Made by a program: the position numbers and the translations under genes. From Gemmatimonadota bacterium (GTDB lineage: Bacteria > Gemmatimonadota > Gemmatimonadetes > Gemmatimonadales > GWC2-71-9): 64,000 nucleotides of DNA. Below the pieces are notes generated by a model. The model did no database searches. It worked only from the letters and a program-made list of their open reading frames with translations, and was not told where the DNA came from. This document shows, in pieces, positions 4,953 through 25,460 of this stretch (position 1 is the stretch's first letter; each line of letters opens with the position of its first letter). The stretch lies in contig JBDHKN010000002.1 of the NCBI GenBank assembly GCA_039586365.1, positions 32,001 to 96,000 of the forward strand, given 5' to 3'.

Positions 4953-4953
4953 C

Positions 4954-8522: not shown

Positions 8523-8556
8523 CCACAGTGTGCAGCAAGTTCCGGACGGTCCCCTG

Positions 8557-9471
8557 CTACCCCACCCCAGGAATCGACGAACCGTGACAGACAGAACACA
8601 TCGAGGGGTTCTTGTCTCTCAGCCGATCGGCATCGAATCCCGGTCCGTGCGGATTGACCCTGCCTGACAACGCAGAATGGCAGCGCAGGCAGTCGCTCTC
8701 AGCGTGGCACGCCACGCATGATTCGAGACTTTGCCGCGCAGCCTGTCCGTGCCCGGCAATGAAGTTTTGCTTGGCGTCGTGGTAACGCGACCCAATACCC
8801 CCGATCGCCGTGAGGCCCGCCTGAAGATGGCAGCTGGCGCAGAAGGAGCGCACGTTGTGGCAATCGCTGCACGAGAGTTCGCGAGTATACGCAGCCGTTG
8901 GGTGCTCGGACAGGAAATTGGCTGGATGATAACCAGGGGATCCCGTGGCGGGGTTCGGCTGGTGGCACTCCAAACAGTCACCCCTCACATGGCAACCAGC
9001 ACAGGTTTCTGGCGCTGCCGCAGCTTCAGCTGAGTGGCGATTCCGGAAATCGCTGCCGTGCCACACCGAAGGGCTATTGAGCGCCTCCGACTTGCTGTGA
9101 CAGTCGCGGCATTGGCCAGCCATCGGAAGCTCTCCGGCCACCACATGACAGTCAGCGCACTCATTGCTTGCAGCTTCGATGTGGCGTCCGTGCTCGAACC
9201 TCAGATTGGACTGTGGCCGCGGCTCGGTCGGCGTCCAGTCTATCGCGGGCTGCAGATTGCCGTCGTGACACGCCGCGCAAAACGTCGGCTGCGGATAGGG
9301 AGAAGCATCCGGCTGCGTTACACCACCGTGGCACGCGTCACACCCGAACAACCCCGCATGCTTATCGTGGGGGAACGGCTTCGAAATAACGACTGACGCC
9401 AAAGGAGCCCATCCCATTCCCACGGCAACCGTTGTCACCGCCAGCAACGCCAACAACTTGATCGCTCTCAT
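8557..9471 (-). CDS. 11-heme periplasmic cytochrome c (porin-associated)
   Basis: Signal peptide; 11 CxxCH in 304 aa; start overlaps the porin stop. Confidence 0.92.
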   Translation of the reverse strand: MRAIKLLALLAVTTVAVGMGWAPLASVVISKPFPHDKHAGLFGCDACHGGVTQPDASPYPQPTFCAACHDGNLQPAIDWTPTEPRPQSNLRFEHGRHIEAASNECADCHVVAGELPMAGQCRDCHSKSEALNSPSVWHGSDFRNRHSAEAAAAPETCAGCHVRGDCLECHQPNPATGSPGYHPANFLSEHPTAAYTRELSCSDCHNVRSFCASCHLQAGLTAIGGIGSRYHDAKQNFIAGHGQAARQSLESCVACHAESDCLRCHSALSGRVNPHGPGFDADRLRDKNPSMCSVCHGSSIPGVG

Positions 9472-10982
9472 CGTACCCCCCTTCCTTCGGGAATGCGGAG
9501 AATGGCAGGATGCAACCCACCTCCTCTTGGTGTAGTCCCGAAGTCAAACGACAGCCCCGCGTTCAGTCGCCACTGGTCCCAGCTGAGGCGTGCGGCGTCA
9601 CTGCGTTGGCGGACTTCGTCATAGCGACGCACCTCTGCGTTCAGACGAACACCGCCGACTGTCCGATAGTCGAACCGCAGCGCGTATGACCGGACGTCGG
9701 CCTCGTTGAAGCGGAACTCCAGGGGTCGCTGCAAGCGTTGGGCGTGCCCCGTCACGCTGAGCGCCTCGGTCGGAGTGAAGGTAGCTAGCCCCTCGTACCC
9801 CACAGACCTGGAGCCCAGACCCTCGTCCACCCAGTGGCCAGCTTCGAACCTCCAGGCCCTGAGGCCATTATAGGCAGCCCCCAGCTTCCAGCGCCACCCG
9901 TCCGACTCCACCTGTTGTAGTCGCGTTGAGGCCTCGGTGTCGTCGAACTCGTAAATCTCACCTGACGTCCTCACCTCCAGTCCACCAATGGGAGAAATCG
10001 AGAGCGACCCGAATCCTGCATTGTAAGGTACCGGGCTGAACGCTCCCCAAATCGTCCACAGATCGAAACGAGGTCTGTACCGGCGGGCACCCACCGTCAG
10101 GCGTCCCATGCCTCTAGGTGCGATGTAGGTCGCCGAGGCGTCCGCAGTTCCCCACAAGCCGGCCGCCACGTCATACTCAGCGCCACCCGATACTGTGATG
10201 TTGCTTGCAGGGCTCAGATCCAGATCGAATGCCACTCGATCGGACACCAGGTTCTCCGATTCAGGGTCGATCTCTCGCTGCCAAATCGCCTGTCCAAAAA
10301 CCTGCGAGAACGACAGTCCCAGCCCAGCACCAACTATCAGTTGGCGATCACGGGGCTGGAATTCGTCCAGTGGGTTTAGAGCACCACTTGTCACCGGGAG
10401 TGCCACTCCTCGCGCCAAACCCCAACCACCATAGCCCAGCACCCGCAGTTTCCGACCCAAAGGCATGACTTCGGCTTTCACTCCATCGAAGCCAGTCCAT
10501 CCGAATCTCGTGGCAACATGTGTCCGGCCCGCCTGTGCAACCAGACTCCGTTGGGTGTACTCGAGGTACCCTTCCAGCAGCTGTACCTCAGGATCGGTGC
10601 CGGGCCAGACGTCCGCCTTGGACAGGTCAGTGCCGAAACGCACTTTGGTGTTCAGTCGTAAGCCGGAGACGCCGAAACCCCAGGCACTGGCATCCACAGT
10701 CGCCACAACCGGGTGCCCTCTCAGATCCGGTCCTGGACGGTAGAACGTGCAGTACTCCACGCCTGCCGGGCAGTAGGCGGCATAGCCGTCAGCGGTGAGG
10801 AAGGACCCATCACCGGTGAGTCGCACATCGGCAGCCAATACGCTGTCGATAGAGTACCCGCGGTACGATATGCCCTGGTATCGCGCGTCGAGTCGTGCCC
10901 GATAGCCCTGGGCACTGACGGGCGCTGCCCATGTCACGACGATCCCGACGGCCAAAGTTGCCAACAGCTTCGATGACTTCAT
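9468..10982 (-). CDS. Outer-membrane beta-barrel protein (putative porin of a porin-cytochrome conduit)
   Basis: Sec signal (VSA-Q); alternating amphipathic strands rich in G/Y/W/R; terminal strand LNAGLSFDF; lies between cytochrome genes. Confidence 0.8.
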   Translation of the reverse strand: MKSSKLLATLAVGIVVTWAAPVSAQGYRARLDARYQGISYRGYSIDSVLAADVRLTGDGSFLTADGYAAYCPAGVEYCTFYRPGPDLRGHPVVATVDASAWGFGVSGLRLNTKVRFGTDLSKADVWPGTDPEVQLLEGYLEYTQRSLVAQAGRTHVATRFGWTGFDGVKAEVMPLGRKLRVLGYGGWGLARGVALPVTSGALNPLDEFQPRDRQLIVGAGLGLSFSQVFGQAIWQREIDPESENLVSDRVAFDLDLSPASNITVSGGAEYDVAAGLWGTADASATYIAPRGMGRLTVGARRYRPRFDLWTIWGAFSPVPYNAGFGSLSISPIGGLEVRTSGEIYEFDDTEASTRLQQVESDGWRWKLGAAYNGLRAWRFEAGHWVDEGLGSRSVGYEGLATFTPTEALSVTGHAQRLQRPLEFRFNEADVRSYALRFDYRTVGGVRLNAEVRRYDEVRQRSDAARLSWDQWRLNAGLSFDFGTTPRGGGLHPAILRIPEGRGVR

Positions 10983-11065: not shown

Positions 11066-13909
11066 CTACTGATAGCCGAACAGCATTGCGTATACTATCA
11101 GCGCGATCAGGGTAAGGCCAATAGCTAGGGCAGTGAAGCCCAGCACCTTGAACATCACTTGTAGTTTCCGAGGATACGGATGCGCTAGGTGCTCCGCCAG
11201 TTTCCCCTCTCGTACAAGCTCTTCGTATTCCCTGGGCTTGTCCTCCTTCAACTCCTCCACTGATACCCTACCCGTGAATATCACCGGGTCCATGGGAAAT
11301 TTATCAGGCCGGAAGTGGGTGTTGAAGAAGTGGATTGTGAAAATGAAGCCCACCGCCAACAAGGCTTCGTCACTGTGCACGATGGTAGCCACGTTCACCC
11401 ACCACCCTGGGATCACTGCAGTGAAGAACTCGGGGAACCACAGGAGCAGGCCGGTCGAACCGATGACCATCATGCCCCAGAATACCGCGAAGTAGTCGAA
11501 CTTCTCCCAATAGGTATATCGTCCGTACTCCGGACGAGGGCCGCGGCCCAGGAACCACTTGATCGATCCCCAGAACTCCCTGAGATCTGTCTTGTTGAAG
11601 ATGAGGGAATTCTCGGAAAAAATGAACCTCACCCAGTTCTTACCTGACGCCTTCTTCTGCTTGAACACATCAACCAGATGGACGATGAACACCGTGATCA
11701 GGGCAACCGCTCCAACCCGGTGCAAGAACCCCGTCGTAGTGAAGCCACCAACGACTGAAGAAATGACCTGCGCCCAACGGGCATAGGAGAATTTCAGCAC
11801 CATCCCCGTCAGCGCCAGGGTGAAAAAGCTGAACAGCATGACCAAGTGCAACCCACGGTGGAACGTACTGAAGCGCTTGTACAGCTTCTCTTCGGGAGCG
11901 GGCTTGTGTCGTTTCCAGACACCGGGCGACCGGGTCAGCCTGAAGAGCCAGGCCCCGGTATGAATTAGAGCAAAGGTGAGCGTGCCCACCAGCAGCGCCG
12001 TCATTCCCCAGAAGGCATAGAAGAGTAAGGGGTACTTGTCCTGGTCGTGGTGTGTAGCGTGGGTCAGATAACCCGTGAAGCGACGGTTGGCACCTGGGTG
12101 ACAGGAACTGCAAGTCTCGATGATGTTCCGCCGGCTCAACGTAGATGCGGGCTCTGATGTCGGTAAGATGTTGTGGGTTCCGTGACAATCGTAGCACTTC
12201 GCGGCAGCGGCGTCACCCAGCCGAGACACCTTCCCGTGGAAGGTGTCAAAGAAGGTCTCTGCCTCATCGGTATGGCAGTTGCCACACTGGGTCATCTCGC
12301 GCAGGCGGAAATCTGCCAGGTCCGTGCGACTGATGGAGTGCGACGTGTGGCAGTCTTCGCAGGTGGGGAGCTCGGTCTCTCCCGCTGCCTGACCATTGCC
12401 GGGCCAGTGAATGCTGGCCATGAATACCTCTGCGATTCCGTGATGACAGCTGCCGCACGTTCCTGCGAGGTTGTCGCGGTGTACAGACGACTCAGGGTCA
12501 TCGGGTGCCAGCTCTTTGTGCGGCGTGTGGCAACTGGGGCAAGTCGCCGTAACCACCAAGCCGCTTTCGAACAGGCCCTTCCCATGGATGCTCATTTCGT
12601 AGCTCTCCACGGGAGGAACTAGCTCTAGCGTCTCTCCCAGTGCAACCAGCGGTTCCTGCGCTGCCTCATCCAGTTGTCGGGCCAGATGGTTAGACTCGAC
12701 CCGAACGGCAGCTTTCTGCCCCCGACGGTGGCAGTTGGCGCACAGCCCCGGAACGTTGCGCGCAAAGGTAGGAGACGCAGGAACCAAATGGCTCTGTATC
12801 GCGTGTTTGCCGTGGCAGTCGAGGCAAGTCGGCGCATCGGGATCATTCTGAGCGACCAAGCGACCATGGATACCCGAGGTGTAATCACTCACCTGTTCGG
12901 TGTGGCAAGGGCTGCAATCGACAGGAGATGAGATCGTGGCGCAGGGCCGCGTCAACGTGATGCTGACGTCACTGTGGCATTGGGCACAAGGTGTATCCGA
13001 GTGGACAGATAGATTGTGCGCCTGCTCATCTACGTAAAGTGAAACCGAGTCACCCTGAGCGATACCTGTGAGATTCGGATCACTGTGGCAACGTAGGCAG
13101 TTCTGATTTGCCGCACCCGCTTCGTACAACACGCCTCTAACGGTGTGCGGTGCGTGGCAGTCGACGCACACCGGGATCATGTCTGGCTGTTCCCGCCAAC
13201 GCCGGCCCTCGATCACCTGCCGATGTACCTGTTCGATCTGCGAGTGACACTGCTCGCATGTCCTCGCCACATTGTTGTGATTGATGCTAGATCGCGGATC
13301 AGTGTGCGGCAGTATGAAGTGTGACGTGTGACACGAAGTGCAGACTGCAGTGACCGTGAGTCCCTGTCTGAACAAACCCTCGCCGTGAATGGAAAGCGAG
13401 TAATTGACCAGGATCGAATCCTGCGGAATGTTGCGTGTCCTGGCAACGGGCGCACCTTCCCTGTGGCACTCACCACAGAGGAAGGGGATGTTCATCACCC
13501 TTGTGGGCGATCGCGGATCTGTGTGAGACAGTACGTCGTGAGTCCCGTGACAATCCTGACAGGTGGGTGCCAATAGGTCCCCACGCGCGCCAGCCTGACC
13601 GTGAAGTGACGCTGTGTGTTGTCTCTGTTGCTCGGCATGACACATGCCGCAGTCGACCTTGAAGCGGTCCTCCGGGTGTGGAAACTCCAAGCCCATGTGG
13701 CAGGTCGTGCACTGCATCTCCGCGCTGCCGTGGACCGAACCCGAGAACGTCTCTGTGGTGACAACCAATCGAGGTGCCTCAGCCGCCGGAAACATCGCGG
13801 CATTCCCGTGACACATGAGGCATGTCTCACTGTCCTGAGCCGCGGTCGGGATGGCCGCGAACAGGCTCACAATCACGAATCCAAAGGACACAACGAGAAT
13901 CTTCCGCAT
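11066..13909 (-). CDS. CbcL-like fusion: 19-heme cytochrome c + FdnI/HydC-type cytochrome b
   Basis: GGAG before ATG 13909 and signal peptide; 19 CxxCH; C-terminal RGLH..LALTG..FLHR..GRYTYWEKFDY..VHSDEALLA..IHFF. Confidence 0.93.
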   Translation of the reverse strand: MRKILVVSFGFVIVSLFAAIPTAAQDSETCLMCHGNAAMFPAAEAPRLVVTTETFSGSVHGSAEMQCTTCHMGLEFPHPEDRFKVDCGMCHAEQQRQHTASLHGQAGARGDLLAPTCQDCHGTHDVLSHTDPRSPTRVMNIPFLCGECHREGAPVARTRNIPQDSILVNYSLSIHGEGLFRQGLTVTAVCTSCHTSHFILPHTDPRSSINHNNVARTCEQCHSQIEQVHRQVIEGRRWREQPDMIPVCVDCHAPHTVRGVLYEAGAANQNCLRCHSDPNLTGIAQGDSVSLYVDEQAHNLSVHSDTPCAQCHSDVSITLTRPCATISSPVDCSPCHTEQVSDYTSGIHGRLVAQNDPDAPTCLDCHGKHAIQSHLVPASPTFARNVPGLCANCHRRGQKAAVRVESNHLARQLDEAAQEPLVALGETLELVPPVESYEMSIHGKGLFESGLVVTATCPSCHTPHKELAPDDPESSVHRDNLAGTCGSCHHGIAEVFMASIHWPGNGQAAGETELPTCEDCHTSHSISRTDLADFRLREMTQCGNCHTDEAETFFDTFHGKVSRLGDAAAAKCYDCHGTHNILPTSEPASTLSRRNIIETCSSCHPGANRRFTGYLTHATHHDQDKYPLLFYAFWGMTALLVGTLTFALIHTGAWLFRLTRSPGVWKRHKPAPEEKLYKRFSTFHRGLHLVMLFSFFTLALTGMVLKFSYARWAQVISSVVGGFTTTGFLHRVGAVALITVFIVHLVDVFKQKKASGKNWVRFIFSENSLIFNKTDLREFWGSIKWFLGRGPRPEYGRYTYWEKFDYFAVFWGMMVIGSTGLLLWFPEFFTAVIPGWWVNVATIVHSDEALLAVGFIFTIHFFNTHFRPDKFPMDPVIFTGRVSVEELKEDKPREYEELVREGKLAEHLAHPYPRKLQVMFKVLGFTALAIGLTLIALIVYAMLFGYQ

Positions 13910-14147
13910 CCAGACTCCAGCCAAACTCGCACACGCTGTGTGAGCCCCATTCCCTCGCACAACCACACCCCCGCAATAGCTTCTGGCATACCTCGCAGCC
14001 GGGGTCCGGGACATTTCCCCAGCCTTCCCACCATCTAGAATTTACTTATCACGTGCTGCTCTCCAGCCTCCTTAAAGAGTTCCTCATCAGCGATTTAGAG
14101 GATTCCGGCAGAGTCCGGCCACGCAACTCCGGGGCTCGTGCGCGCAA

Positions 14148-16094
14148 TCAAGCCTCGGAGCTTGCTCCAGACTCCTCCCCTACGTGCGCGATCTCCTCTT
14201 TGTACCAGCGGCCGTGATGTTCCTCCGCAGTCTTCTTGGACATCTTGCCAGTCAGCCAGGTCCAGTTCATGGGATACTCGCCAGGATAGAAGAACACGAA
14301 GAAGAAGTGCCAAACGACGATGGCCAGCGTCGCCAACCAAGCCTCGTAGTAGTGGATAGTCTGCGAGATTGTAACGGCGATTGCCGGTAAGAACCCAACC
14401 GCCACTGTCGGGAACCATAGCACGAAGCCTGTGAGGGCCATTACGACTGTCCCCCAAACCAGCGCCCAGTATTCTGCCTTCTGCGTGTAGTCGTAACGGC
14501 CGAACTTGGCTTTCTTCTCGCTGCGCCATGTGTAGTACTTCATGTTAGCCCAGAAATCCTTCACGTCTTGCAGGTTAGGCAGCATCGCCCAAAACTCTTT
14601 CCTCCCGCGTTTGACGGAGATGATGTACCACAGGTGGCTGAGAGATACAAGGACCATGACAACAGCACCGATGCGGTGGAGAGTCGAACGTACCGGTTCA
14701 GTCATACCCACTACGGACAACTGCTTCACCCACCAAGCATCGGGGAACCTCAGCGCAAATCCCGTGAGCACCAGCAGCCAAAAGGACACCAAGAGACCCA
14801 CATGTTGTATTCTCTGTACTACATCCAAGCGCAGGATTGACTCGGCGGACATGGCCTCCTTCCGGCGCTTGATGGCGTAGAAACTCAGAATCACCACGTT
14901 GTGGAGCAGCATACCGCCGATCGTAAGGGCGATCAACCAAAGGTAGACGCTCTTTATCAAGCGATTGATGGGGTTGGATATGACGGATGTGGCCTCATGC
15001 GTGTAGCTTGCAGCGAACTGTTGATCCGCACCGGGGTGACATTGTTGGCAGGTTTGCACGACGTTGCTGATGTAGATCGTGGACGTAGAGTCCGATGCCG
15101 GCAAGACCCGGTGCGTCGAGTGGCAGCTGACACAAGTGGCCGCAAGCTCGTAACCGCGCCGCGATGCCCAGCCATGGTAGCTGTCCACATATGAGCCTAC
15201 TTCGCCTCCCCTGAGACCATAGGTAGCCACAATGACCGGATCGTCATGGCAGGTGCCACAGGTTTCCGTAGCAAGTCGCGCCGCGTATGTGGTGGCATCA
15301 GGATCGTTGTGTGAGAGGATTAGGTGTTCCCCGTGGCAGTCATTGCATGTGGGGCTGTCACTCACTCCAGCCCGTAGAGCTCTACCGTGAATCGATTGTT
15401 CGTACTCGATCTGGACATCTTGGTGGCACTTGCCGCATGTGCTCGAGACGTTCATGTGGCTCACACTAGACGTGGGATCGTCGGGTGATCCGAGATTGTG
15501 CACCCCATGACAATCGTTGCAGTTTGCTGCGGCGCTGATTCCCTCCTCAGACCGTTGCCCATGAATCGACTCAGCGTAGGATACCGCAGGCCGAGCAACC
15601 TTCACGATAGCATCGGTGAGAAGACCCTGGGTCCCGTGACAAGTGGCACAAGTGGCAGGAACATTGAGTCTATGCGTCGGCGCCCTGGGGTCCGCGCTCC
15701 GCAGTATTCCGTGAGTGCCGTGACAAGTCTTGCACGCGGGCGCGTTCGGACTGCCTCGGTCCAGCGCATAACCATGCATGCTGCGTTGGTAGATATCAGC
15801 AATCGCCGAGTGACAGCTGCCGCAATTCACCGTGGGCATGTCGTCTGGATGCGGAAAGATGACACCCTGATGACACATTGCACAGGAGAATCCAAGTACC
15901 CCGTGGACCGAGTTACTGTATTCTTCCTGTGCCACTACTAGCCGTGAAGGATCCTCTGTACCCGCGAACAGTGACACGTCCGCATGACACATCATGCAGG
16001 GTAACTCACCCTGAGCAACCAAAGTACGGCTATCTATGACTACAGCTGCGACGGCGGCGATCAATGCCGTCAGTCGTGTCGCACGCATACTCAT
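14148..16094 (-). CDS. CbcL-like fusion: 11-heme cytochrome c + FdnI/HydC-type cytochrome b
   Basis: 11 CxxCH; RIQH..LVLTG..TLHR..GRYDYTQKAEY..IHYYEAWLA..VWHFF. Confidence 0.93.
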   Translation of the reverse strand: MSMRATRLTALIAAVAAVVIDSRTLVAQGELPCMMCHADVSLFAGTEDPSRLVVAQEEYSNSVHGVLGFSCAMCHQGVIFPHPDDMPTVNCGSCHSAIADIYQRSMHGYALDRGSPNAPACKTCHGTHGILRSADPRAPTHRLNVPATCATCHGTQGLLTDAIVKVARPAVSYAESIHGQRSEEGISAAANCNDCHGVHNLGSPDDPTSSVSHMNVSSTCGKCHQDVQIEYEQSIHGRALRAGVSDSPTCNDCHGEHLILSHNDPDATTYAARLATETCGTCHDDPVIVATYGLRGGEVGSYVDSYHGWASRRGYELAATCVSCHSTHRVLPASDSTSTIYISNVVQTCQQCHPGADQQFAASYTHEATSVISNPINRLIKSVYLWLIALTIGGMLLHNVVILSFYAIKRRKEAMSAESILRLDVVQRIQHVGLLVSFWLLVLTGFALRFPDAWWVKQLSVVGMTEPVRSTLHRIGAVVMVLVSLSHLWYIISVKRGRKEFWAMLPNLQDVKDFWANMKYYTWRSEKKAKFGRYDYTQKAEYWALVWGTVVMALTGFVLWFPTVAVGFLPAIAVTISQTIHYYEAWLATLAIVVWHFFFVFFYPGEYPMNWTWLTGKMSKKTAEEHHGRWYKEEIAHVGEESGASSEA

Positions 16095-16243: not shown

Positions 16244-18229
16244 CTAACCGCTCAGTGAACCCACCTGGTGGCATGCATCGCACACCAACGGAGCGTTGTG
16301 CTCCACTTTGTCAGTATGACATACGGTACAGACCTGGCGACTCCACTTGTCGATTCCCACAACCGCGCCCCCATGACACTGCGAACACTGCAGGTGAGCG
16401 AAGCTCAGCGCATGGTTGGATTTCGCTCCCTCTCGATGACAGGAGAGACAAGTTGCCTCGGGTTGGTGGTGCCGATCGTGACAGGTGTCGCAGTTGAGGC
16501 CTCTAGCACTCATGGACGGTGTCTGGTGGCACATCGCGCAGGCCAGATCTGCTTCACGGTGCGGTTCGTGCGAAAAGTCGCCCATTGAATGCACCTGCAC
16601 CTCTGAAGGGGCACCGCCCACACCCTCATGGCATCGAGCGCAGTTCATCGCTCCGATCTCGCGGTGGTGGCAGGAGTTGCACGCCACCACGCTCGCAAGC
16701 GTTGTCTTCCCGTGATCGTCCAGCGGTGTATGACAGGCGGTGCATTCGAGTCCAGCACCGACCGCGTGCCGTTCGTGACTGACAATTCGGTCTCTGAACC
16801 GCACATCCCTCCGCTCGACGCCGAGGTGGCAGCTGAGGCACACATTGTCATTCAGCTTCGGCCCTAAGTCGACGGTCGGAACCCCAAAAGGCAGGCCACC
16901 ATCCATAACGGCTTCATTCATTAGATCCAGAGCAGCCCGCAGCAGCTCGTCGGCAAACGCGACATTGTGCGTTCCTCTCCCGACTCTTACGAATTCGAGG
17001 TTCTCTTCCGCCAGGCTCAGGAGGCTATCAATCTTGGCCCGCGAGCGAATGGGCGCGGAACCAGCCGCTCTGCGGGCACCAGCAACCACCTGACTCACTG
17101 ACACCAGTCTCCGCTGCATCTCTTGCTGCCAGGAAGGCAGGATGTTGGCATAACGGATACCGTGACAAGACAGGCAAGTGGCCTCACCGGCCAACTGGAC
17201 TTCCTCGTGTCCCTCGACCTCACGCGGTAGCCCGTGGCAACTCTGGCATGACACTCGAGCTAGGAACATTGAGCTGGGCATCTCCTCAGCACCGTGACCA
17301 CCCAACCCTGCATAGAGTCGTTGCTGCGCCTCGTGCGTACGCTGGTGACAGGCGCGGCAGTCAAGGTCGAACGTGGGCCTTAGCGAGACAACCCGATGGT
17401 CCATTCGCTCGTGACATTGGGTGCACTCGACGTTGTGCTCCGCTATATGAGTCCGATGCACCAACTCAGTGTTGTCGAACAAAACAACGCGTTCCGGCTC
17501 GTTGTGGCAGTTGAAACAGCGCGACTCCTCAGCTAGTCCAGATCCCGAGACGACCTCACCGTGACAAGAAAGGCACGACACCATGTCCCGGATGTACTGC
17601 GGGTGATCAACCACGAAGCCAGCCGGTGATTCCACCCGAGGCGGTGACTTGTGACAGCCGGTACACCCCGCTATGGGCTCACCCTCGGGTGTCTCCTTGA
17701 AGTGACAGAGATAGCATGTCGACTCGGTGACCCTGAGGTGGTCACCCTGAACGATCTGCGAGTGACAGCTGGTGCAGCGAAGTTGCTTGCCGCGCCGCAG
17801 CTCGCCCAAATGGTGCGCGTGGTCGAACTGGATCCCTCTGAACACCACGATGCCTTCGAGCTTCCTCTGCTCATGACAGCCCGAACGGAGACACGCCGCA
17901 TCTTCTATCTCCGCCCAAGGTTTCATGCCATAGGTACCGGTCACGTATTTCACGACCTGGTTGGCAGCCTGGATCTTGCCCATCGCCTCGGCCCTGATCC
18001 CTGGCGCATAGTGGCACTCGATACAGGGCACGTCGTTGTGGGATGAGCCGGCCCAGGATTCGTAGTAGGGAATCATGATGTGGCAGTTGTCGCAGAACCC
18101 TGGCTGAGCGCTGTATTCGATGAAACCAACGGTGCTCACGGCCGCCAGAATCACGAAGAGGACCCCTACCTGGATCAGGATCCTGACCGGTCGGGCGAGT
18201 CGCCGGAATCTGTGCGACAGGTCTGTCAT
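16244..18229 (-). CDS. 22-heme membrane-anchored cytochrome c with NapC/NirT-type N-terminus
   Basis: ATG 18229 overlaps the upstream stop; N-terminal TM then FCDNCHIM..W..SSH..CIECH; 21 CxxCH plus CLRSGCH. Confidence 0.92.
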   Translation of the reverse strand: MTDLSHRFRRLARPVRILIQVGVLFVILAAVSTVGFIEYSAQPGFCDNCHIMIPYYESWAGSSHNDVPCIECHYAPGIRAEAMGKIQAANQVVKYVTGTYGMKPWAEIEDAACLRSGCHEQRKLEGIVVFRGIQFDHAHHLGELRRGKQLRCTSCHSQIVQGDHLRVTESTCYLCHFKETPEGEPIAGCTGCHKSPPRVESPAGFVVDHPQYIRDMVSCLSCHGEVVSGSGLAEESRCFNCHNEPERVVLFDNTELVHRTHIAEHNVECTQCHERMDHRVVSLRPTFDLDCRACHQRTHEAQQRLYAGLGGHGAEEMPSSMFLARVSCQSCHGLPREVEGHEEVQLAGEATCLSCHGIRYANILPSWQQEMQRRLVSVSQVVAGARRAAGSAPIRSRAKIDSLLSLAEENLEFVRVGRGTHNVAFADELLRAALDLMNEAVMDGGLPFGVPTVDLGPKLNDNVCLSCHLGVERRDVRFRDRIVSHERHAVGAGLECTACHTPLDDHGKTTLASVVACNSCHHREIGAMNCARCHEGVGGAPSEVQVHSMGDFSHEPHREADLACAMCHQTPSMSARGLNCDTCHDRHHQPEATCLSCHREGAKSNHALSFAHLQCSQCHGGAVVGIDKWSRQVCTVCHTDKVEHNAPLVCDACHQVGSLSG

Positions 18230-19476
18230 GACGTGCGGTCCCGCCCGGCCAAATCCCTGAACTTGAACCAGGCAAACACAATCGCAGAGATGGCAAGGAA
18301 CCACACCGGCACTAGCAACAGCTTGTGTTCCCAGCGGCGCTCCGCTCTCACTTCGGCGGTAGTCCGAACCAGCTCGGTGTTTGAGCGCACACTGCGGGCG
18401 AGTTCGTCAAGGAGGTCCACGTCCAGACTGTGCAGTGCCAGCGCCATCTGCCGATACTCGGTTACCGCCGTTTGGTACCGGAACCGCTCGTCAGAAACTT
18501 GCTTGCCGCCGACTGTCAGAGTTGCTATCGCCTGCTCAGCGGAGACCAAATCCGCAGCTGCTTCAACCACCGACTCTTGCAGGTCCACACCTAGCAGTCC
18601 CGCTCGGCTGCTTGGCTCATGGCAGTTGACGCAGACTGAAGCGATTCCGTCCGGAGGCACCCTCTCCGTACCATGGTTGCTGTGACATCCCAGGCATCCG
18701 GCGAGCTCGCCATCCCGGGACGGCTCATTGTGAGGTCCCTGAAGAAACGCTCTCCCGATCAGAAGGTGGCAGTGGTCGCAAACGTTCACTACTTCATTGA
18801 CGCCGGGCGGAAGTGCGGCGTGGGAACCGTGACAACCCATACACGTAGGAGCCGCAAAATTCGATCTCTCGAAGACTGCGATTCCATGAGCGCTGTTTCG
18901 ATATTCCGCGAACTGGTCTGTCGGAATACCGTACTGCTGCATCAGCTGGGCATCCTCATGGCAACGGGCGCAGGTACCCGGGATATTGGTCGGGTAGACG
19001 TTGCTCCTGCCGTCTTCCGGGGGAAGAATCGTGTGGGCGTCGTGGCAATCGGTGCAGGTCGGTGCGTTCAGGTCGCGCCGTTCGAGAAGCAGCTCGCCGT
19101 GTCGGCTGGTGCGGAACTCGGCCAGCTGACCGGCTGGAATGCCGTACTGGCGCATCATGTCTGCGTCCGCGTGACACGACGAACACAGTTCGATGGTCGC
19201 CAGCTTCCCCGGAGTGCCGATATACCGCCCACGGTGCGCTTGGTCTCGCTCGTAGGAAGTGGGATCGCCACCGTGACAGTCGTGACACCTGATACCGTGT
19301 TCCGAGTGGATTCCCAGCGTGAATGCCCTGCGTTTCTCGGCGTGGCAGATGAGACATCCATAAGTGGTATCGGCGGCCATACTCAGACCACCCTGCTGGT
19401 CGGCGCTCCACGCGGGTGCTGGTAGCAGCCAGCCGAGAATCCCGGCAGTCAGGGCGAGTCGCATTGTGTTTCTCAC
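18226..19476 (-). CDS. Nonaheme cytochrome c with C-terminal TM anchor (bc module 2; paralog of 3168-4454)
   Basis: 9 CxxCH; shares CHGGDP, RTS.HG.LL, IPTDQ, APTC..CHG.H.A.PPG, NVC..CH with 3168-4454. Confidence 0.93.
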   Translation of the reverse strand: MRNTMRLALTAGILGWLLPAPAWSADQQGGLSMAADTTYGCLICHAEKRRAFTLGIHSEHGIRCHDCHGGDPTSYERDQAHRGRYIGTPGKLATIELCSSCHADADMMRQYGIPAGQLAEFRTSRHGELLLERRDLNAPTCTDCHDAHTILPPEDGRSNVYPTNIPGTCARCHEDAQLMQQYGIPTDQFAEYRNSAHGIAVFERSNFAAPTCMGCHGSHAALPPGVNEVVNVCDHCHLLIGRAFLQGPHNEPSRDGELAGCLGCHSNHGTERVPPDGIASVCVNCHEPSSRAGLLGVDLQESVVEAAADLVSAEQAIATLTVGGKQVSDERFRYQTAVTEYRQMALALHSLDVDLLDELARSVRSNTELVRTTAEVRAERRWEHKLLLVPVWFLAISAIVFAWFKFRDLAGRDRTS

Positions 19477-20801
19477 GGCTCCCTCCCAGCGGGGTCGGAG
19501 TCTTCTTCACCTGGTGCGGGACGGGGCGGCGTTGGGCCTAAATCTCTGAGTGGCAGCCCGGCCTCTGGAATCTCAGACGCACCTCGCACGGACTCTGCAG
19601 CGGGTCGCGACGATGGACTTACCGATCGGATTTGACGTCCCGTGAGCCAGGCCACACCGAAACCGATGAAGAAGATCAACCCGAGAGCCGCAGCTAGGGG
19701 CCTGTGTCTCAGCCGCCTTTCCGGCCTACGGTCAAATAGCGGAACCAGCACTAGGCTAAATCCAAGTAGTGTGAATCCCGTAAGACCCCACGGACCGAGG
19801 AAGCGAATGAGAGCGAGCGACACATCGACCGGGACCCAGGTGGATACCAGTTCACCTGGAACCAGATACGGATTCGCGGCATCCCCCACCGGTCGGGGGA
19901 ACAGAGCGGCCAACGAAATGGCTACAGCAAGAACCAAGACCACCACTACGAATGACCGGAGAAGGTGGTTCGGGAAGAACGGGATGCCCTGCGGGAAGTC
20001 CTCCAGTTTCCACTGCGCACTTGCGCGCCAAGAATCTCGATCCTCACGGACGTCAGTCGGAGGCGCGACACCCCGACGGCGAACGAGTGTGAAATGGTAA
20101 ACCAACAAGACCAGCGCAATCCACGGCAACACGATCACGTGTAAAGCGAAGAAGCGACTCAGCGTGGCACCCGAGACAATAGCGTCTCCCATGATTGCTT
20201 CCGTGATGACACCGCCCAGCAGCACTGTGCTCGACATCACGTCTAGCACTTCCGACACAGTCCAATAAGCCCATTGGTCCCACGGAAGCAGGTACCCTGT
20301 GGCACCGAAGGCGAGAACGATGAACAGCAGCAGCAGGCCGACGAGCCAATTGGTTTCGCGTGGCGGCTTGTAGGCAGCCGCGAAGTAGACGCGCCCCATA
20401 TGCGCCAGCACAGCGAGCACGATCAGATTGGCGGACCAAACATGCAGGTCGCGTATCAGCCATCCAAATGAGACGTCTGAGACAATGTGCTGTATGCTCG
20501 GGTAGGCCTCCTGTACCGACGGCCGGTAGAACAAAGCGAGGAGGACTCCTGTTACCACCAAGATCATGAAGAGGAGGTACGTGATCCCACCAAACGCATG
20601 GCGCCACCCGACGTGCGGCGGCAGCCGGTAGCGCAGCGCCTTCTGCAGTGCTTGGTCGATTCGCAGGCTGCGATCAATGGGCCCATAAAGGAGTCCGAGG
20701 AAACGAGCTACACCGAGAATGCTGGCGTCGGTGCTCGCCTTGATGTCGGTCCACATGTTCGTGAACCAACTCGTCACCGCCCTCCACGTTCGCCCGATCA
20801 T
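19473..20801 (-). CDS. Cytochrome b paralog with degenerate Qo motif
   Basis: Four heme His retained (DLHVW..LAHMG; LHVIV..VYHFT), GYLLPW present; PEWY position reads STWV (19833-19844). Confidence 0.92.
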   Translation of the reverse strand: MIGRTWRAVTSWFTNMWTDIKASTDASILGVARFLGLLYGPIDRSLRIDQALQKALRYRLPPHVGWRHAFGGITYLLFMILVVTGVLLALFYRPSVQEAYPSIQHIVSDVSFGWLIRDLHVWSANLIVLAVLAHMGRVYFAAAYKPPRETNWLVGLLLLFIVLAFGATGYLLPWDQWAYWTVSEVLDVMSSTVLLGGVITEAIMGDAIVSGATLSRFFALHVIVLPWIALVLLVYHFTLVRRRGVAPPTDVREDRDSWRASAQWKLEDFPQGIPFFPNHLLRSFVVVVLVLAVAISLAALFPRPVGDAANPYLVPGELVSTWVPVDVSLALIRFLGPWGLTGFTLLGFSLVLVPLFDRRPERRLRHRPLAAALGLIFFIGFGVAWLTGRQIRSVSPSSRPAAESVRGASEIPEAGLPLRDLGPTPPRPAPGEEDSDPAGREP

Positions 20802-21256
20802 GCTTCATCCCCAACGTACACCACGCCGTTTCGCAAGAAGACCGAGTAGCGCTGCAACGGCGTGGTGGTAAGACCTGCAACGACGTTGCCCTGCAGATCG
20901 AAGACAACGTAATTGCAGGGAGACACCACTCTCAGAGATTCCAGATCCCAGCGCAGCACGCAGCCGTCTTTGGGGGATGTTCCCTGCAGCCCGACGAAGC
21001 GTTGCTCGCCACTCCGCACCACCAAAACCGTCCTGTCCCCCCAACTCACTATACGGCTCGCACCAACCGGAAAATCGGCTTCTCGCGCCACCCTAACACC
21101 GGGCAGCAGTTCTGAGATTTCCAGATGCTCCCGAGGCAACACGTACAGGGCAAGGATCAAACCCAACCCGGCCAGCATCAGGAGGGTCACGGCACCTAGC
21201 AGGAGATCGTTGAAGCCAAGTTTGGCGGGTTGGCTCTCATCGCCCATATCAATCAT
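20798..21256 (-). CDS. Rieske-fold protein lacking Fe-S ligands
   Basis: TM anchor; aligns to the Rieske fold (FDLQGNVVAG...PL..Y.V) but boxes read SPKDGC and SPCN; no RR motif. Confidence 0.85.
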   Translation of the reverse strand: MIDMGDESQPAKLGFNDLLLGAVTLLMLAGLGLILALYVLPREHLEISELLPGVRVAREADFPVGASRIVSWGDRTVLVVRSGEQRFVGLQGTSPKDGCVLRWDLESLRVVSPCNYVVFDLQGNVVAGLTTTPLQRYSVFLRNGVVYVGDEA

Positions 21257-21441: not shown

Positions 21442-22992
21442 TCAATCCCGCGTTCCCCGCGACGGTTGTGCGTCAATCGTCAAATCGACTCCGGCTGGCA
21501 GCACGATCCCGTAGTGGTCCGCTGCCGCGGTGATAGAAGCCTTCAGAAGGGCCTCGAGGAATGGTGGATTGTGGACTCCATTGCCACTAGTGGGATGGGC
21601 GCCGAACTCAACCGTGTCGTTCGCGGCCACCACAATGAAGGCCTCCCGGAAGTATGGCGTGTCGTCCGTGGCCGCCAGCTGTGCATTCCATAGCACTCCC
21701 TCAGCGAACGTGAACAACGTGTCAGACACATCCAGCTCTTTCGGACCAATGGTCGCAACGATCTGTGCCAACACGCCAGCATCGGTGGGAGCCGCGTCCA
21801 GGTGGTCGTCGCCGTTGGAGTCGACCCAGATCTGGCCCAAGAGTACATTCAGCTCGTCGGCGAACGCTTCGTAGATCGCTTGGGAGTTGGCCTCGGTGCC
21901 ATGACAGCTTGCACAGGCGCTGAACGTGCGCTCGTCGTTAGTGCAAGGACCGGGCTCCGGAATCCCGTCCGCATCCACACACGGAATGGCCTCAAAGCTG
22001 TGTCCCACGCTTTGGAAGAATTCGGGCTGGGTCACAGTGAACGATGCAACGTGGCAGGTTGCACAAAGACCGGGATTGACGGCGGGATTGCCGTGGGCAC
22101 CGGTCAATCCATCTAGCCACTCGAAGCCCGGCGCCCACCAACCGATGTTCTGACCGAGCACCAAAGGACCTTGGGCACCGTGCGGCCCGTGCGTAGTTGC
22201 AGTCGGTACCGTCGTCGTACTATGACACTTGATGCAAAGGTTGTTCTTCGTGGCTACCGAGATCGGGGCCCGCAATTGGCCGGGATTCGGGCCGCCGTGA
22301 GGGTCGTGGCACACCGCACACGTGATGTCCAACAGCTCTCCGGTACCCTTTTCCAGATAGTCCGCCGACACCCCGAACTGACTCTCGAGCGCTTTCGTAC
22401 CCTCATGACAATCGTTGCACGGCGACCTTCCCTTGGCGAAGCTGGTGGTGTTCCCGTGGCGGGACTCCTCCCACTGCTCGACAAAGGGATGGTGTGCGTC
22501 GCTGTGGCATTCGCCACATCCGTTGGTGGCAGCCTCGCCAACTGCGATTGACGCTAGGGGTCGTGTGAACGTCGGATCGCTCACATGGTTGACCCCTGGG
22601 CCATGGCAAGATTCGCACTGCACATCTTGATACGCCGAATCGGCGACCAAGCTAAACCCAGCCGGTTCAGCCAGCGCGTTGCCCAGCTCATTGACCGTAT
22701 GGCATCCCTCGCATGATTCCTCCGCGAAATCGGAACTCTGCAACCCAGCCCAGGCGTCGGCATGTGCTGTCTCGGCCCATTCAGCCTGCTTGTCGGCATG
22801 GCAGTTACCGCAGGTCGTCTGCTTCTCCGCCGTCAGGTAGTAGCCCAGGAAGCCGGAGGCAGCATCCGGCGGCGGGTTGAACGGCTCTACATCGCGGAAA
22901 ACAATGTCATCTTTGGTACAACCCGTGGCCAACACCACAGATGCCACGAACGTTGCGAGCCAGCGACGCGAGGAAAACGGATGTTCGTGCAC
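21442..22992 (-). CDS. Nonaheme cytochrome c lipoprotein (candidate outer-surface cytochrome)
   Basis: GTG start after GAGG; lipobox LATG-C; 9 CxxCH; C-terminal helical domain with GVHNP. Confidence 0.9.
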   Translation of the reverse strand: MHEHPFSSRRWLATFVASVVLATGCTKDDIVFRDVEPFNPPPDAASGFLGYYLTAEKQTTCGNCHADKQAEWAETAHADAWAGLQSSDFAEESCEGCHTVNELGNALAEPAGFSLVADSAYQDVQCESCHGPGVNHVSDPTFTRPLASIAVGEAATNGCGECHSDAHHPFVEQWEESRHGNTTSFAKGRSPCNDCHEGTKALESQFGVSADYLEKGTGELLDITCAVCHDPHGGPNPGQLRAPISVATKNNLCIKCHSTTTVPTATTHGPHGAQGPLVLGQNIGWWAPGFEWLDGLTGAHGNPAVNPGLCATCHVASFTVTQPEFFQSVGHSFEAIPCVDADGIPEPGPCTNDERTFSACASCHGTEANSQAIYEAFADELNVLLGQIWVDSNGDDHLDAAPTDAGVLAQIVATIGPKELDVSDTLFTFAEGVLWNAQLAATDDTPYFREAFIVVAANDTVEFGAHPTSGNGVHNPPFLEALLKASITAAADHYGIVLPAGVDLTIDAQPSRGTRD

Positions 22993-23189
22993 GGTCTACC
23001 TCGAGGAGAAGTGTATGGTACTCTTTGACTTCTAGTATCCCAATTATGAAGGAGAACAGCAAGTGGTTCCCCTATTCCGTTAAGGCTTCTTCAGCATCTA
23101 TTTATGCGCTTTCGGACACCGTTGTGGAGTCCTGAGAATTCACGAGGAGTGTGGGTCCAATCCGTTTCCAAGAGGGTAGGGTACAGTAC

Positions 23190-23651
23190 GTGAGTGACCA
23201 GCTTTCTACAAGGCAGCGTGTCGCCCTCAGAGCGGTATGCCGAACGATTCTCCCCGCCCCAATCAGTGATCTGGAGGGTATCGCTCTCGAGCAATCTACT
23301 GGGCGGGCAGAACAACTGATTGCGTCGCTCGCCGACCCCGGGAACCGCGCACGCCTCTTGGCCCTCCTGACGGTCCTGGGTTCGCCCATCGCGAACCTCG
23401 TTCTGGGGGGCCGGGCTGCTGCACTCCAAGCGATGGAGCGGTCGGACCGTGAGGAAGTCCTCCGTGGATGGACTCAATCCCGAGTGCCCCAGACCAATCT
23501 GCGGTGCGGGGAAACAGGTGAGTCTCATGAGGTACCGGGGCTCTACGTCGCCGCCGCGAGCGTGTTCCCCACCTCGAGCGGTGTGAACCCCATGATCACT
23601 ATCATGACAATAGCAGATCACGTCGCACGGGGGCTGGCTGACCGCTTGTGA
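23190..23651 (+). pseudogene. Internally deleted GMC oxidoreductase (long-chain alcohol oxidase-like) remnant
   Basis: C-terminus GESHEVPGLYVAAASVFPTSSGVNPMITIM is the GMC C-terminal signature; no FAD-binding GxGxxG or core; only about 150 aa. Confidence 0.75.
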
Positions 23652-23679
23652 GGACGCGCGAGCCTAGAGCAACGAGTCA

Positions 23680-23708
23680 GGCCGGCCTTCGTCCCACGAA
23701 GACCGGCC
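23680..23708 (-). terminator. Hairpin downstream of octaheme lipoprotein
   Basis: Minus strand GGCCGGTCTTCGT-GGG-ACGAAGGCCGGCC with one G-U pair. Confidence 0.55.
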
Positions 23709-23756
23709 CGCTCATGACGCTCAAGTCAGCTTATCAGAGGTGCGGCTGCCGGTCCA

Positions 23757-25241
23757 CTAGTTGTGAATGCCGTTAGCCTTCGTTGCCAGCTCCGCCATGG
23801 TCCTCTGGCTGAAGCCCCCGCCCTCCGCAGATACCGGGTCCGTATGACAGGAATAGCAGGCAAAATCGAGAGTCACCCATCCCTTGTCCATAAACGTTCC
23901 ACCGGCATCGAACATGTTGTCCTTGATCAGATTGCCATCGGTGTTGATTCCGAAGATGTGGGTGCGCACGTCACCCTCAAAACCGTGCACTGCTCTCGCT
24001 GACATCGTGGCCCGCGGCATATGACAATCCACGCAGCCCGGAGCCGAATTATGCGAATTGTTGGCCGCCTGATCCGGGTGACAACTTTCACACGTTGCCA
24101 CTATACCCCCGTTGGCAGCGTTGCCGTACAGGACGCCAACATGTGCGTCATGGCAGTCGTTGCAGCTCAGGTTTGCGTGAGTTCCCGCCAACAGCTCATT
24201 GTACTGTTCGTGATGTCTGATAAAGCCACCACTGGCAGGGATGGTCTGAGCGTCACCGCGGATATGGCACTGACCGCACAATTCTGCGCTGTCGTCTACC
24301 GTGATGTCAGACCCTGATTGGCTCGCGACATGATTCGCACCGGGACCGTGACACGCTTCGCAAGTAATCCCCGTCTCCTCCCAGGTACCAGCTATGCCCA
24401 CAAGACCATCCTGATGCACGCCACCATTGTCAGCAAAGCTCTGCCATCCAGTTGTATGACAGGCGCCGCAATCGTACGGCTTCCGTTCAGTATCTGTCGC
24501 CTGGTATGGTACCCACTCCGATGGCAGGCCACCCCCCAAGTCACTCCGCGGCAGGTTGTACTGCACGTCGACACCGTCCATCGCATTGGTCATGACCCAA
24601 CCCGAATCGGCGGTTATGTAGCGTGCTTTCCACCCATACCCCCCAATCACGTAAGCTATGTCGCTCCAGGCCGCTCTCGAAGCCCCGGGTGGAGGCGTCG
24701 GTACCTCGCTGTGTGGATACTCGGGCGCTTGCCCGTTCACGATCTTGTTCAGCTTGTAGGGATGACCCGAGTTGAGCATTTCCTCGGAGTAGTTGAAGTG
24801 ACAGTTCCTGCATACATGGCTAGTCACGTAGCCCCGCGCCGAATGCGCGATGATCGCAAAAATACCGTCACTCTCGTCCTCGCCCGTCTGCCCGATGGTA
24901 TCCTTCGCAACCGCCTTCACGGTTACGCTGAACACGTTGGCATCGGGAACCGTCCAAGTGTAGCTGGAGCCTGTGACACCGCTGGCGATCATGGCTTCAA
25001 AACCACCAGAGAGATAGCTGAGGTCGACGCCCACCACTCCAATATCGTCCGTCGCGGTCCAAGTGATCTCAACGTTTGAACCTGGCTGAACGACTTCACC
25101 ACCGTTGGGGGCTGTGAGCTGAATGGTGGGTGGGTTGTCCTCCGGAGAGACGATCGGCTCCGTCCCATCGTCACACCCCGCAACCAGCCCGACAACCACG
25201 AGCACAGAGAGTCCAGCTAGCAACTTTCGCACTGGCTTCAT
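23757..25241 (-). CDS. Octaheme cytochrome c lipoprotein with N-terminal Ig-like domain
   Basis: GGAGAGGAG RBS; lipobox LVAG-C; beta-rich APNGGE..ITW..YTW.VP domain; 8 CxxCH. Confidence 0.9.
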   Translation of the reverse strand: MKPVRKLLAGLSVLVVVGLVAGCDDGTEPIVSPEDNPPTIQLTAPNGGEVVQPGSNVEITWTATDDIGVVGVDLSYLSGGFEAMIASGVTGSSYTWTVPDANVFSVTVKAVAKDTIGQTGEDESDGIFAIIAHSARGYVTSHVCRNCHFNYSEEMLNSGHPYKLNKIVNGQAPEYPHSEVPTPPPGASRAAWSDIAYVIGGYGWKARYITADSGWVMTNAMDGVDVQYNLPRSDLGGGLPSEWVPYQATDTERKPYDCGACHTTGWQSFADNGGVHQDGLVGIAGTWEETGITCEACHGPGANHVASQSGSDITVDDSAELCGQCHIRGDAQTIPASGGFIRHHEQYNELLAGTHANLSCNDCHDAHVGVLYGNAANGGIVATCESCHPDQAANNSHNSAPGCVDCHMPRATMSARAVHGFEGDVRTHIFGINTDGNLIKDNMFDAGGTFMDKGWVTLDFACYSCHTDPVSAEGGGFSQRTMAELATKANGIHN

Positions 25242-25460
25242 AGACCATGACTCCTCTCCAAGGTGCGTGACCACATCCAGAGCCGATACGATTCCTGTTG
25301 CGTCAGCCGCTAGATTGCGACGGTGCAGTGGACATGATCGGTCTGCCTGGACAGTATCACAACCCGTAGCAATGCGCAGGCGCCGCAAGCTAGCTTGGGC
25401 GACTATCTGAAGCATACTATCACAAGGATGTTGGCATTACAAGAACGGAGTAACTGACAC

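Follow-up and report, generated by a model that had tools for sequence, protein, structure and literature searches.

What becomes of a Rieske/cytochrome b complex once the ligands of its iron-sulfur (Fe-S) cluster and its quinol oxidation (Qo) site are gone? This question is raised by a 64,000-nucleotide stretch of DNA from a Gemmatimonadota bacterium (contig JBDHKN010000002.1, positions 32,001 to 96,000), here called the window, which contains the genes for a Rieske protein, a cytochrome b and a 9-haem cytochrome c twice. Copy 1 is canonical; copy 2 consists of genes for a Rieske-fold protein (R2), a cytochrome b (B2), a 9-haem cytochrome c (c2) and a 21-haem cytochrome c (Table 1). We found that copy 2 is real and conserved and that it lacks what defines a Q-cycle complex, i.e. 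the cluster ligands, the Qo motif and the canonical residue of the WGA motif. With a probability of roughly 0.55, its four proteins would constitute a stand-alone, non-bifurcating wire between quinone and multihaem cytochromes, built on a bc scaffold with about 30 c-type haems and running as one unbranched line from quinone over haem bH, haem bL and c2 to the 21-haem protein.

The gene order is c-Rieske-b in copy 1 and Rieske-b-c in copy 2. An original prediction for this locus had described copy 2 as three intact genes joined by ATGA overlaps. The open reading frames (ORFs) are indeed intact and R2 and B2 overlap in this way, but the B2/c2 overlap is GTGA (or the start is an ATG 9 nucleotides further on), and the prediction had omitted the 21-haem gene, which overlaps c2 by ATGA. 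Among 14 named genome loci fetched, 12 were long enough to show the R2-B2-c2 order, which was constant in all 12, and the 21-haem gene came next after c2 in 11/12.

By BLASTP, R2 and the Rieske protein of copy 1 (R1) are 24% identical (E = 3e-8), and the alignment places TCTHLGC and WCACHN of R1 on TSPKDGC and VSPCNY of R2. The coordinates originally given for the degenerate boxes SPKDGC and SPCN were exact. The N-terminus reads SRRRFI in copy 1 and AKLGFN in R2. R2 gave no Pfam match and only weak matches to PetC (E = 1.6e-5), and public databases label it as hypothetical or as a ferredoxin subunit. Its AlphaFold2 model (predicted local distance difference test, pLDDT, 88) shows an N-terminal helix at residues 15-39, and the best Foldseek match of this model is the Chlorobaculum Rieske protein 8hn2 (E = 1.3e-8, root-mean-square deviation 1.7, template modelling (TM) score 0.82 by target length).

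A search of 5.8 billion clusters returned 255 candidates, among them 117 R2 homologues of 49-95% identity with one replacement pattern in common; as one is a fragment, ligand counts refer to the remaining 116 full-length proteins. None of the four Fe-S ligands is present in 115 of these, as in R2 of the window, and a single one in the last. Cys99 and Cys114, by position the disulfide pair, occur in 116/116. The RRxF motif, found in copy 1 and in canonical collinear Rieske proteins, occurs within the first 45 residues of 1/116. The original statement that all four ligands and the twin-arginine translocation (Tat) motif are lost while the disulfide cysteines are kept thus extends from the window to almost the whole R2 family. 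Replacement ligands were considered and rejected: 103/116 homologues have no cysteine besides this pair, and a histidine one place after box 2 (31/117 rows) is not conserved. Judging from the sequences, R2 presumably holds no Fe-S cluster. A Rieske/cytochrome b complex devoid of its cluster has no high-potential chain and cannot bifurcate electrons.

Every taxon-named R2 match belongs to Gemmatimonadota. Of 401 genomes of the phylum, 82 contain any R2 match and 42 a strong one (E < 1e-54), and the 42 strong matches are free of internal stops. A deep profile search of 1.84 billion representatives (150 rows listed, none carrying a taxon) yielded 13 rows that lack the ligands but have both cysteines, the weakest at E = 3.6e-27; the rows below these were mostly ordinary Rieske proteins, and 115 aligned rows had four ligands. 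Rows with partial ligand sets were seen as well (20 with three, 4 with two), several of about 216 residues with an extra N-terminal domain. Partial-ligand Rieske-like proteins include P0136, P0137, P0142, P0147, P0150, P0155 and P0158, and also those of the loci L146 and L169, whose Rieske boxes are partly degenerate; other lineages besides the R2 group may be altering or losing the Rieske cluster. A VKOR-DsbA fusion, a disulfide-forming system encoded at 46458-47693 of the window, is a candidate server of the conserved R2 cysteine pair.

B2 is 36% identical to the cytochrome b of copy 1 (B1) by BLASTP and matches PF00033 (E = 5.5e-49, 167 bits versus a cut-off of 27); it gave no match to PF00032, the C-terminal part of cytochrome b, and none to PF01292 at E 0.01. 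The cytochrome b fold is retained in its model (pLDDT 82), for which Foldseek gave TM scores of 0.61-0.69, normalised by query length, against bc1 cytochromes b; the nearest solved structure is cytochrome b6 2zt9 (E = 1.3e-54). We collected 54 distinct R2 loci and scored 52 with an adjacent B2 (of the other two, L004 breaks off within this gene, and B2 of L013 is visible among the fetched loci), 51 of which cover all scored sites; V146, Y279, H201 and D228 are the yeast/bovine names of site residues. The four haem-b histidines are present in 51/51 B2 proteins and PEWY in 0/51, its place being taken by STWV (28), STWI (11) or ten other motifs in 12 rows, one of them PTWG. The replacement of PEWY (5800-5811 in copy 1) by STWV with retention of all four haem histidines, as originally noted for the window, is therefore a property of the family, and ligand loss co-occurs with PEWY loss in the family, PEWY being absent from every fully scored B2 beside an R2.

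Alignment of B2 with Pseudomonas bc1 places YWTVSE on YWGAQV, STWV on PVWY and LLRS on TVKD. The WGA glycine position holds Thr in 48/51 and Ala in 3/51 proteins, the Val position three residues further on holds Glu in 49/51, and a new Asp directly follows the STWV-type motif in 46/51. Because these positions are changed too, the loss of the Qo site extends beyond PEWY. In Rhodobacter, bulkier residues at the WGA glycine (G143) stop quinone binding at Qo, as stated in the accessible text of Sarewicz et al. (PMC7908018) for bulky side chains, especially Trp, and not for Thr.

The 9-haem cytochromes of copies 1 and 2 have 9 CXXCH motifs each and are 31% identical by BLASTP. The 21-haem protein matches PF03264 (E = 3.4e-7) and, below cut-off, the NrfH model (E = 1e-12, 48 of 134 bits). 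In a three-chain structure prediction of B2, R2 and c2, c2 scored 0.60 against 0.01 for the best control, which was graded as weak support and depended on B2; the mark for this score is reached by 116/157 solved complexes and 2/215 mismatches, of which 18/157 and both mismatches lie at 0.60 or below. The runs agreed in at least 54% of contacts, with a partner pLDDT of at least 79. We infer that the R2, B2, c2 and 21-haem proteins form one complex.

Such a complex would derive from a Rieske/cytochrome b operon and would no longer run a Q cycle. R2 would remain as a structural cap and anchor stabilised by its disulfide. The quinol site on the periplasmic side is dismantled, and closure of the Qo pocket would keep one-electron semiquinone chemistry from occurring there. 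Quinone would instead react at a cytoplasm-side, Qi-derived pocket, connected through haem bH, haem bL and direct transfer between bL and the c haems to the 9-haem and 21-haem cytochromes, and beyond these to further cytochromes of the cluster in the periplasm and outer membrane. Since both b haems are kept in every B2 while a sister clade described below drops bH, electrons probably cross the membrane via bL and bH; the only linked redox partners of B2 are c2 and the 21-haem protein. The direction could be either menaquinol oxidation, feeding external acceptors whose potential is too low for a Q cycle, or quinone reduction with electrons from outside. The module would then work like the arm of an FdnI/CbcL-type redox loop, by likeness and not by membership, and under different conditions its quinone pool would be turned over by a canonical bc complex or an NrfD-type enzyme.

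The distribution of the module agrees with a stand-alone function. Of the 42 phylum genomes with R2, 31 have a copy-1 orthologue, and 19 of 50 genomes with a copy-1-like cytochrome b lack a strong R2. Nine of the 11 genomes without the orthologue carry a cytochrome b of a different family, namely a b+c-fused type with RPEWY in seven (G046, G056, G068, G076, G207, G321, G397) and further types in G333 and G134. In the last two, G191 and G269, B2 was the only cytochrome b found with two Pfam models; their modules are intact and NrfD-family genes are present. B2 as lone cytochrome b in these genomes, together with the copy-1 orthologue in only 31/42, argues against an obligate heterodimer. Within the genus g53, the companion cytochrome b is B1-type (G016), b+c-fused (G076, G207) or not found (G269), and B2 is 76-84% identical throughout. 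As the partner changes family or disappears while B2 is conserved, coupling through the quinone pool fits better than a fixed interface. Weak PF00033 matches were set aside as bc partners, 2/7 of those checked being fusions of cytochrome b, Fe-S and FlpD domains. In two relatives (L073:1408-2964, L074:1381-2973), a cytochrome b N-domain is fused to 4Fe-4S and FlpD/MvhD domains. Of the two alternatives originally put forward, the non-bifurcating quinone:multihaem oxidoreductase fits best, and the asymmetric heterodimer with copy 1 is weakened by the 11/42 genomes without copy 1, two of them without any other cytochrome b; co-occurrence with a canonical paralogue, then suggested as a check, holds for a second cytochrome b of any kind (40/42) but for the copy-1 orthologue only in 31/42.

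Several observations weigh against the stand-alone wire. The Qi side of B2 is non-canonical: the K-D pair is R-S in 37/51 proteins with Asp in 0/51, the Qi His position is Arg in 51/51 (as in b6), and AFGG stands in place of CxGG with its haem-ci cysteine. The cytochrome b of copy 1 also lacks the Qi His and the haem-ci cysteine but keeps R-D. Because the Qi side is altered too, the Qi-derived pocket is a candidate for the working quinone site, and the new residues E184 and D326 could instead mark a rebuilt site on the periplasmic side. Furthermore, the assemblies of G191 (96% complete, 4 contigs) and G269 (93%, 20 contigs) are both incomplete. Finally, a second cytochrome b occurs in 40/42 R2 genomes versus 111/359 others and versus 27/37 CbcL-bearing controls without R2 (Fisher p = 0.01, overstated as related genomes are not independent). 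This excess over the controls keeps the heterodimer alive.

The large cytochrome also connects copy 2 to a wider operon family. A metagenome scan with this protein retained 80 of 493 matches, and the upstream genes, where present, fall into three states: canonical, cluster-less, and with a cytochrome b lacking haem bH. The canonical state, i.e. a Rieske protein and a four-histidine cytochrome b with PEWY, PDWY or PPWY, was found in L111, L112, L115, L121, L126, L127 and L141, and also in G009, and in G006 as far as its ORF goes. In the bH-less state, 13 cytochromes b with PPWY (L129, L139, L144, L145, L146, L148, L156, L158, L159, L161, L163, L167, L170) have Arg for the helix-B bH histidine, and 10/13 also lack the fourth histidine (usually Thr, Ser or Asn). 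A Rieske gene is visible in 7/13 of these loci, with four ligands in six and three at most in L146. The best 120 of 342 homologues of one bH-less cytochrome b (P0386-P0505) all read H-R-H-T/S, 116 of them with PPWY, and one of the 342 is named Candidatus Eisenbacteria.

Canonical operons collinear with copy 2 (G009 and G006 from another class of the phylum, L111, L112, L115, L121, L126, L141) share the order Rieske, b, 9-haem c and large NapC-like c, and their 9-haem and large subunits in G009/G006 are 34-36% and 38-39% identical to those of the window. In contrast to copy 2, their Rieske protein keeps CxHxxC/CxCH and RRxF, and their cytochrome b has PEWY or PDWY (the G006 ORF ends before the motif). 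In G009 (L045:6924-12045) and G006 (L046:4899-10219), a canonical Rieske protein accompanies a cytochrome b with Lys at the WGA glycine and GRLLPW, the G006 frame stopping after the b6 part; this cytochrome b is possibly an intermediate state. That G009/G006 represent the intact ancestor was not upheld: the cytochrome b trees, one of them from an unfinished search, were undecided, and in the tree of the 9-haem subunits support for the sisterhood with c2 was 96 in FastTree versus 36 in IQ-TREE. The approximately unbiased (AU) test neither established nor rejected a single origin for the cluster-less and the bH-less clade (p = 0.11).

Tentatively, one can propose that the Q cycle was abandoned twice, in complementary fashion, within a single family of multihaem-linked bc operons. 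The Gemmatimonadetes lineage would have lost the cluster and Qo and kept the b haems, and the sister clade would have kept the cluster and PPWY and lost bH, so that together they would be natural half-Q-cycle enzymes. We speak of two independent losses on account of their opposite nature and not of a resolved tree. The parts of the Q cycle appear dispensable within this family because canonical members and the bH-less clade with intact Rieske proteins share the same operon. The Gemmatimonadetes enzyme would then be a complex III that has reverted to a redox-loop anchor: a c-haem wire would trade electrons directly with bL, quinone would react on the side of the cytoplasm, and energy might be conserved from electrons that the cell takes up from outside.

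Among the rival explanations, we consider an asymmetric heterodimer or supercomplex rather doubtful. B2/R2 would form its Qo-dead half beside a bifurcating canonical monomer (copy 1 here), and electrons might cross between the bL haems; R2 would fill the domain-swapped Rieske slot, with c2 and the 21-haem protein lengthening the exit wire. Such an arrangement directly explains why a cluster-less Rieske protein is retained, and it agrees with the frequencies of a second cytochrome b and of the copy-1 orthologue given above. Copy 1 lies within the fetched locus in 8/14 genome loci, in 5/14 as one co-directional run c1-R1-B1-c-R2-B2-c2, and the bH-less sister clade also adjoins a copy-1-type operon (L162, L163, L171). 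However, in genomes lacking copy 1, any other cytochrome b comes from one of three distant families that share about 32-41% identity with B1, and in g53 the companion varies or is absent beside a conserved B2. Moreover, lifestyle accounts for much of the co-occurrence, as in the 27/37 controls, and each module has its own 9-haem subunit, diverged long ago. The copy-1 cytochrome b is split, frameshifted or interrupted by an internal stop in L008, G296:C76, G016:C2, G022:C41 and G026:C441, which could stem from faulty assembly or from relaxed selection on this copy; in G016 and G296, R2 is intact.

Alternatively, B2/R2 could serve mainly as scaffold, buffer or transmembrane lead, its haems storing electrons or handing them to a cytoplasmic partner, and quinone chemistry would be left to the NapC/NrfH-like head of the 21-haem protein. 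The altered Qo and Qi residues of B2 and this NapC/NrfH-like N-terminus agree with such a role, and the invariant residues D19, D25, R33, G36, Y39 and G40 of the B2 N-terminal extension could bind a partner. We regard it as unlikely: in L001, the roughly 7.5 kb that follow R2-B2-c2 contain no 21-haem gene, the NrfH match stays far under its cut-off, the same 21-haem family accompanies canonical Rieske/cytochrome b operons, and polar residues near the pocket on the negative side (n-side) of B2 are strongly kept (R241 in 51/51, H279 in 50/51).

Selection on copy 2 was assessed by the ratio of nonsynonymous to synonymous substitution rates (dN/dS), calculated by the Nei-Gojobori method for pairs with a proportion of synonymous differences (pS) of 0.05-0.6; pairs are non-independent and some genomes enter by more than one locus. 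The medians were 0.34 for R2 (562/946 pairs usable), 0.30 for B2 (486/861) and 0.32 for c2 (147/253), near those of copy 1 (R1 0.26, 51/91; B1 0.24, 77/120; 9-haem c 0.30) and not near 1. No usable pair exceeded 0.63, and values were as low as 0.05-0.24 for the eight closest R2 and B2 pairs. Pairs of the window itself are near saturation, and its branch is not cleanly measured. Homologues at 91-95% identity show the same losses, none retaining the ligand set, so the changes in R2 are not a sequencing artefact. One contig of sequencing run X1, possibly independent of the sample of the window and possibly not, spans both R2 boxes (20832-20985) with 2 differing letters, of which 20927 C>T is synonymous; the contigs of runs X1-X4 cover the module only in part. 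Taken together, purifying selection and losses shared by 115/116 R2 and all 51 B2 proteins bear out the original view that the losses are concerted and not random decay. Recent decay of a duplicated bc operon, or assembly error, is extremely improbable: the lack of a Pfam Rieske match and an R2 median slightly above that of copy 1, on a window branch near saturation, speak for it, but 117 homologues share one replacement pattern, internal stops are absent from the 42 strong genome matches, every usable dN/dS is at most 0.63, and copy 2 as a recent duplicate of copy 1 was rejected by the AU test (p = 0.0005 against one clade for the two 9-haem subunits).

Table 1. Copy 2, copy 1 and neighbouring genes, in window coordinates.
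Feature	Position	Strand	Remarks
R2, cluster-less Rieske-fold membrane protein	20798..21256	-	152 residues, one N-terminal helix, no twin-arginine motif
R2 degenerate Rieske box 1, SPKDGC	20960..20977	-	ligands C and H replaced; disulfide Cys99 kept
R2 degenerate Rieske box 2, SPCN	20912..20923	-	ligands C and H replaced; disulfide Cys114 kept
B2, long cytochrome b	19473..20801	-	442 residues; haem ligands H120, H134, H221, H236; conserved N-terminal extension; no CxGG (haem ci) cysteine
B2 STWV at the PEWY Qo position	19833..19844	-	followed by new conserved Asp326; Ser328 at ef-helix Tyr/Phe position
B2 cd1 helix, T181...E184	20250..20261	-	Thr at Qo-site Gly/Ala position, Glu at Val position
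c2, 9-haem cytochrome c	18226..19476	-	9 CXXCH; predicted signal peptide and C-terminal membrane anchor
21-haem cytochrome c	16244..18229	-	21 CXXCH; N-terminal membrane anchor, NapC/NrfH-like start; fourth gene of the module
Copy 1 module	3168..6051	+	canonical: 9-haem c 3168-4454, Tat Rieske CTHLGC/CACH 4470-4952, PEWY cytochrome b 4954-6051
Two CbcL-like proteins	11066..16094	-	11 and 19 c-haems, each fused to FdnI/HydC-type b domain (PF01292); downstream context
Probable outer-membrane beta-barrel (9468-10982), 11-haem c (8557-9471), 4-haem c (7870-8268)	7870..10982	-	porin-cytochrome-like context; no family match
Upstream 9-haem (21442-22992) and 8-haem (23757-25415) cytochromes	21442..25415	-	probably lipoproteins

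Copy 2 is embedded in a cluster rich in multihaem cytochromes. We call two of its proteins CbcL-like from their architecture, a multihaem c part with a PF01292 b domain, formate dehydrogenase gamma matches lying below cut-off; a CbcL-type b domain occurs in 39/42 genomes with R2. The 504-residue product of 9468-10982 has no Pfam or NCBIfam match and is conserved beside the cytochromes. Its Atlas neighbours are unnamed Gemmatimonadota clusters, and the nearest named ones are outer-membrane barrels at 0.92, a lead only; it is likely the porin of a conduit. The 9-haem gene of the 21442 type is often found upstream of R2 in relatives. At 1-2568, an 8-haem cytochrome c (its gene begins before the window, G000:C55:31663), a Tat-type 4Fe-4S protein and an NrfD-family membrane protein form a third kind of quinone-linked module in the cluster. 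Between two cytochrome genes, a short ORF at 23151-23651 fuses an N-terminal fragment to the final 34 residues of the C-terminal domain of a GMC oxidoreductase; it has the appearance of a remnant left by an internal deletion. CcmF/CcmH-like genes for cytochrome c maturation were recognised by eye about 6 kb before the cluster, upstream of the window (G000:C55:23087-25778).

The source genome contains 25 ORFs with at least four CXXCH motifs and four Rieske/cytochrome b pairs, two of them on other contigs. The two further, canonical-looking pairs are G000:C64:14850-18180 and G000:C92:17150-21830; one precedes an 8-haem protein, and the other has a PPWY motif and a 7-haem protein. Sequencing runs matching the window stretch are estuary and marine sediment DNA (two contain more than half of the words), with no RNA run among those listed. 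The context resembles clusters for extracellular electron transfer such as Geobacter ext, and by analogy suggests that Gemmatimonadota of sediments and soils carry out this process.

A cluster-less Rieske/b/multihaem module was not found described in the open literature; subscription papers could mention such operons. In the accessible text of Kao and Hunte (PMC4122944), the six major Qo patterns all begin with Pro, Ala or Gly and sequences lacking haem histidines had been removed; 'Gemmatimon' has 0 occurrences in the main text. Dibrova et al. 2017 describe S[A/G]WF and histidine-deficient subfamilies and, in the accessible part of the paper (PMC5600118), no STW motif and no cluster-less Rieske protein; 'STW' has 0 occurrences in its 4 supplements. 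The accessible text of PMC5317091 proposes multihaem acceptors for ordinary Rieske proteins only.

Complex III is defined by its Rieske cluster and Qo site. Where selection maintains the whole scaffold although both are lost, this implies that electrons pass through cytochrome b by a route not yet described. Copy 2 and its relatives would offer natural test cases for short-circuit prevention, for direct transfer between bL and a periplasmic carrier and for unequal dimers, questions that are usually approached with mutants. They also bear on a possible return of bc complexes to the quinone-reducing anchors from which they are proposed to have arisen. Annotation misses the module, R2 having no Pfam Rieske match.

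For comparison with known systems, we take subfamily L of the cytochromes b to be that of the Geobacter ext cluster, and the b domain of CbcL/CbcBA to be of the FdnI/HydC type. The Geobacter cluster extHIJKLMNOPQS encodes, according to the accessible text of PMC5877670, the Rieske protein ExtO, the cytochrome b ExtP, ExtQ, the 12-haem ExtM, the 10-haem ExtN and the porin ExtI, and thus resembles our locus in having Rieske and cytochrome b genes beside multihaem cytochromes and a porin. It differs in that ExtP is a short cytochrome b and ExtO is described as an iron-sulfur protein, whereas B2 is long, with [ST][TS]W[VI] and AFGG, and reaches 210 bits against the ExtP model (cut-off 290), and R2 is ligand-less. 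Subfamily L, as far as the available parts of PMC5600118 describe it, lists Geobacter metallireducens Gmet_0539 and shares with B2 a serine-led motif other than PEWY, in its case S[A/G]WF with mostly CLGG. Geobacter uses several non-Rieske bc-type quinol oxidases according to redox potential, with CbcL/CbcBA at low acceptor potentials, and 'Rieske' has 0 occurrences in the accessible text of 10.1101/2021.04.15.440034; two b haems feeding a multihaem chain without a Rieske step is also the mode of action proposed here for copy 2, which has CbcL-like genes in the same cluster. In contrast, CbcL/CbcBA have neither a Rieske-fold subunit nor the petB/cob fold, and B2 does not match PF01292. Natural loss of a haem bH histidine is described, in the portions available, for the cyanobacterial subfamily K (PMC5600118) and for a Pyrobaculum cytochrome b (PMC4122944); these parallel the bH-less sister clade, losing a haem ligand and not the Rieske cluster, with no 9- or 21-haem partners reported there. 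The bc1 and b6f complexes themselves share with copy 2 the Rieske fold with its anchor and disulfide positions, the cytochrome b fold with four haem histidines and an operon with a c-type subunit. Copy 2 departs from them by the absence of Fe-S ligands, Tat motif, PxWY and haem-ci cysteine, by altered cd1 and ef helices, and by some 30 c haems in place of cytochrome c1 or f.

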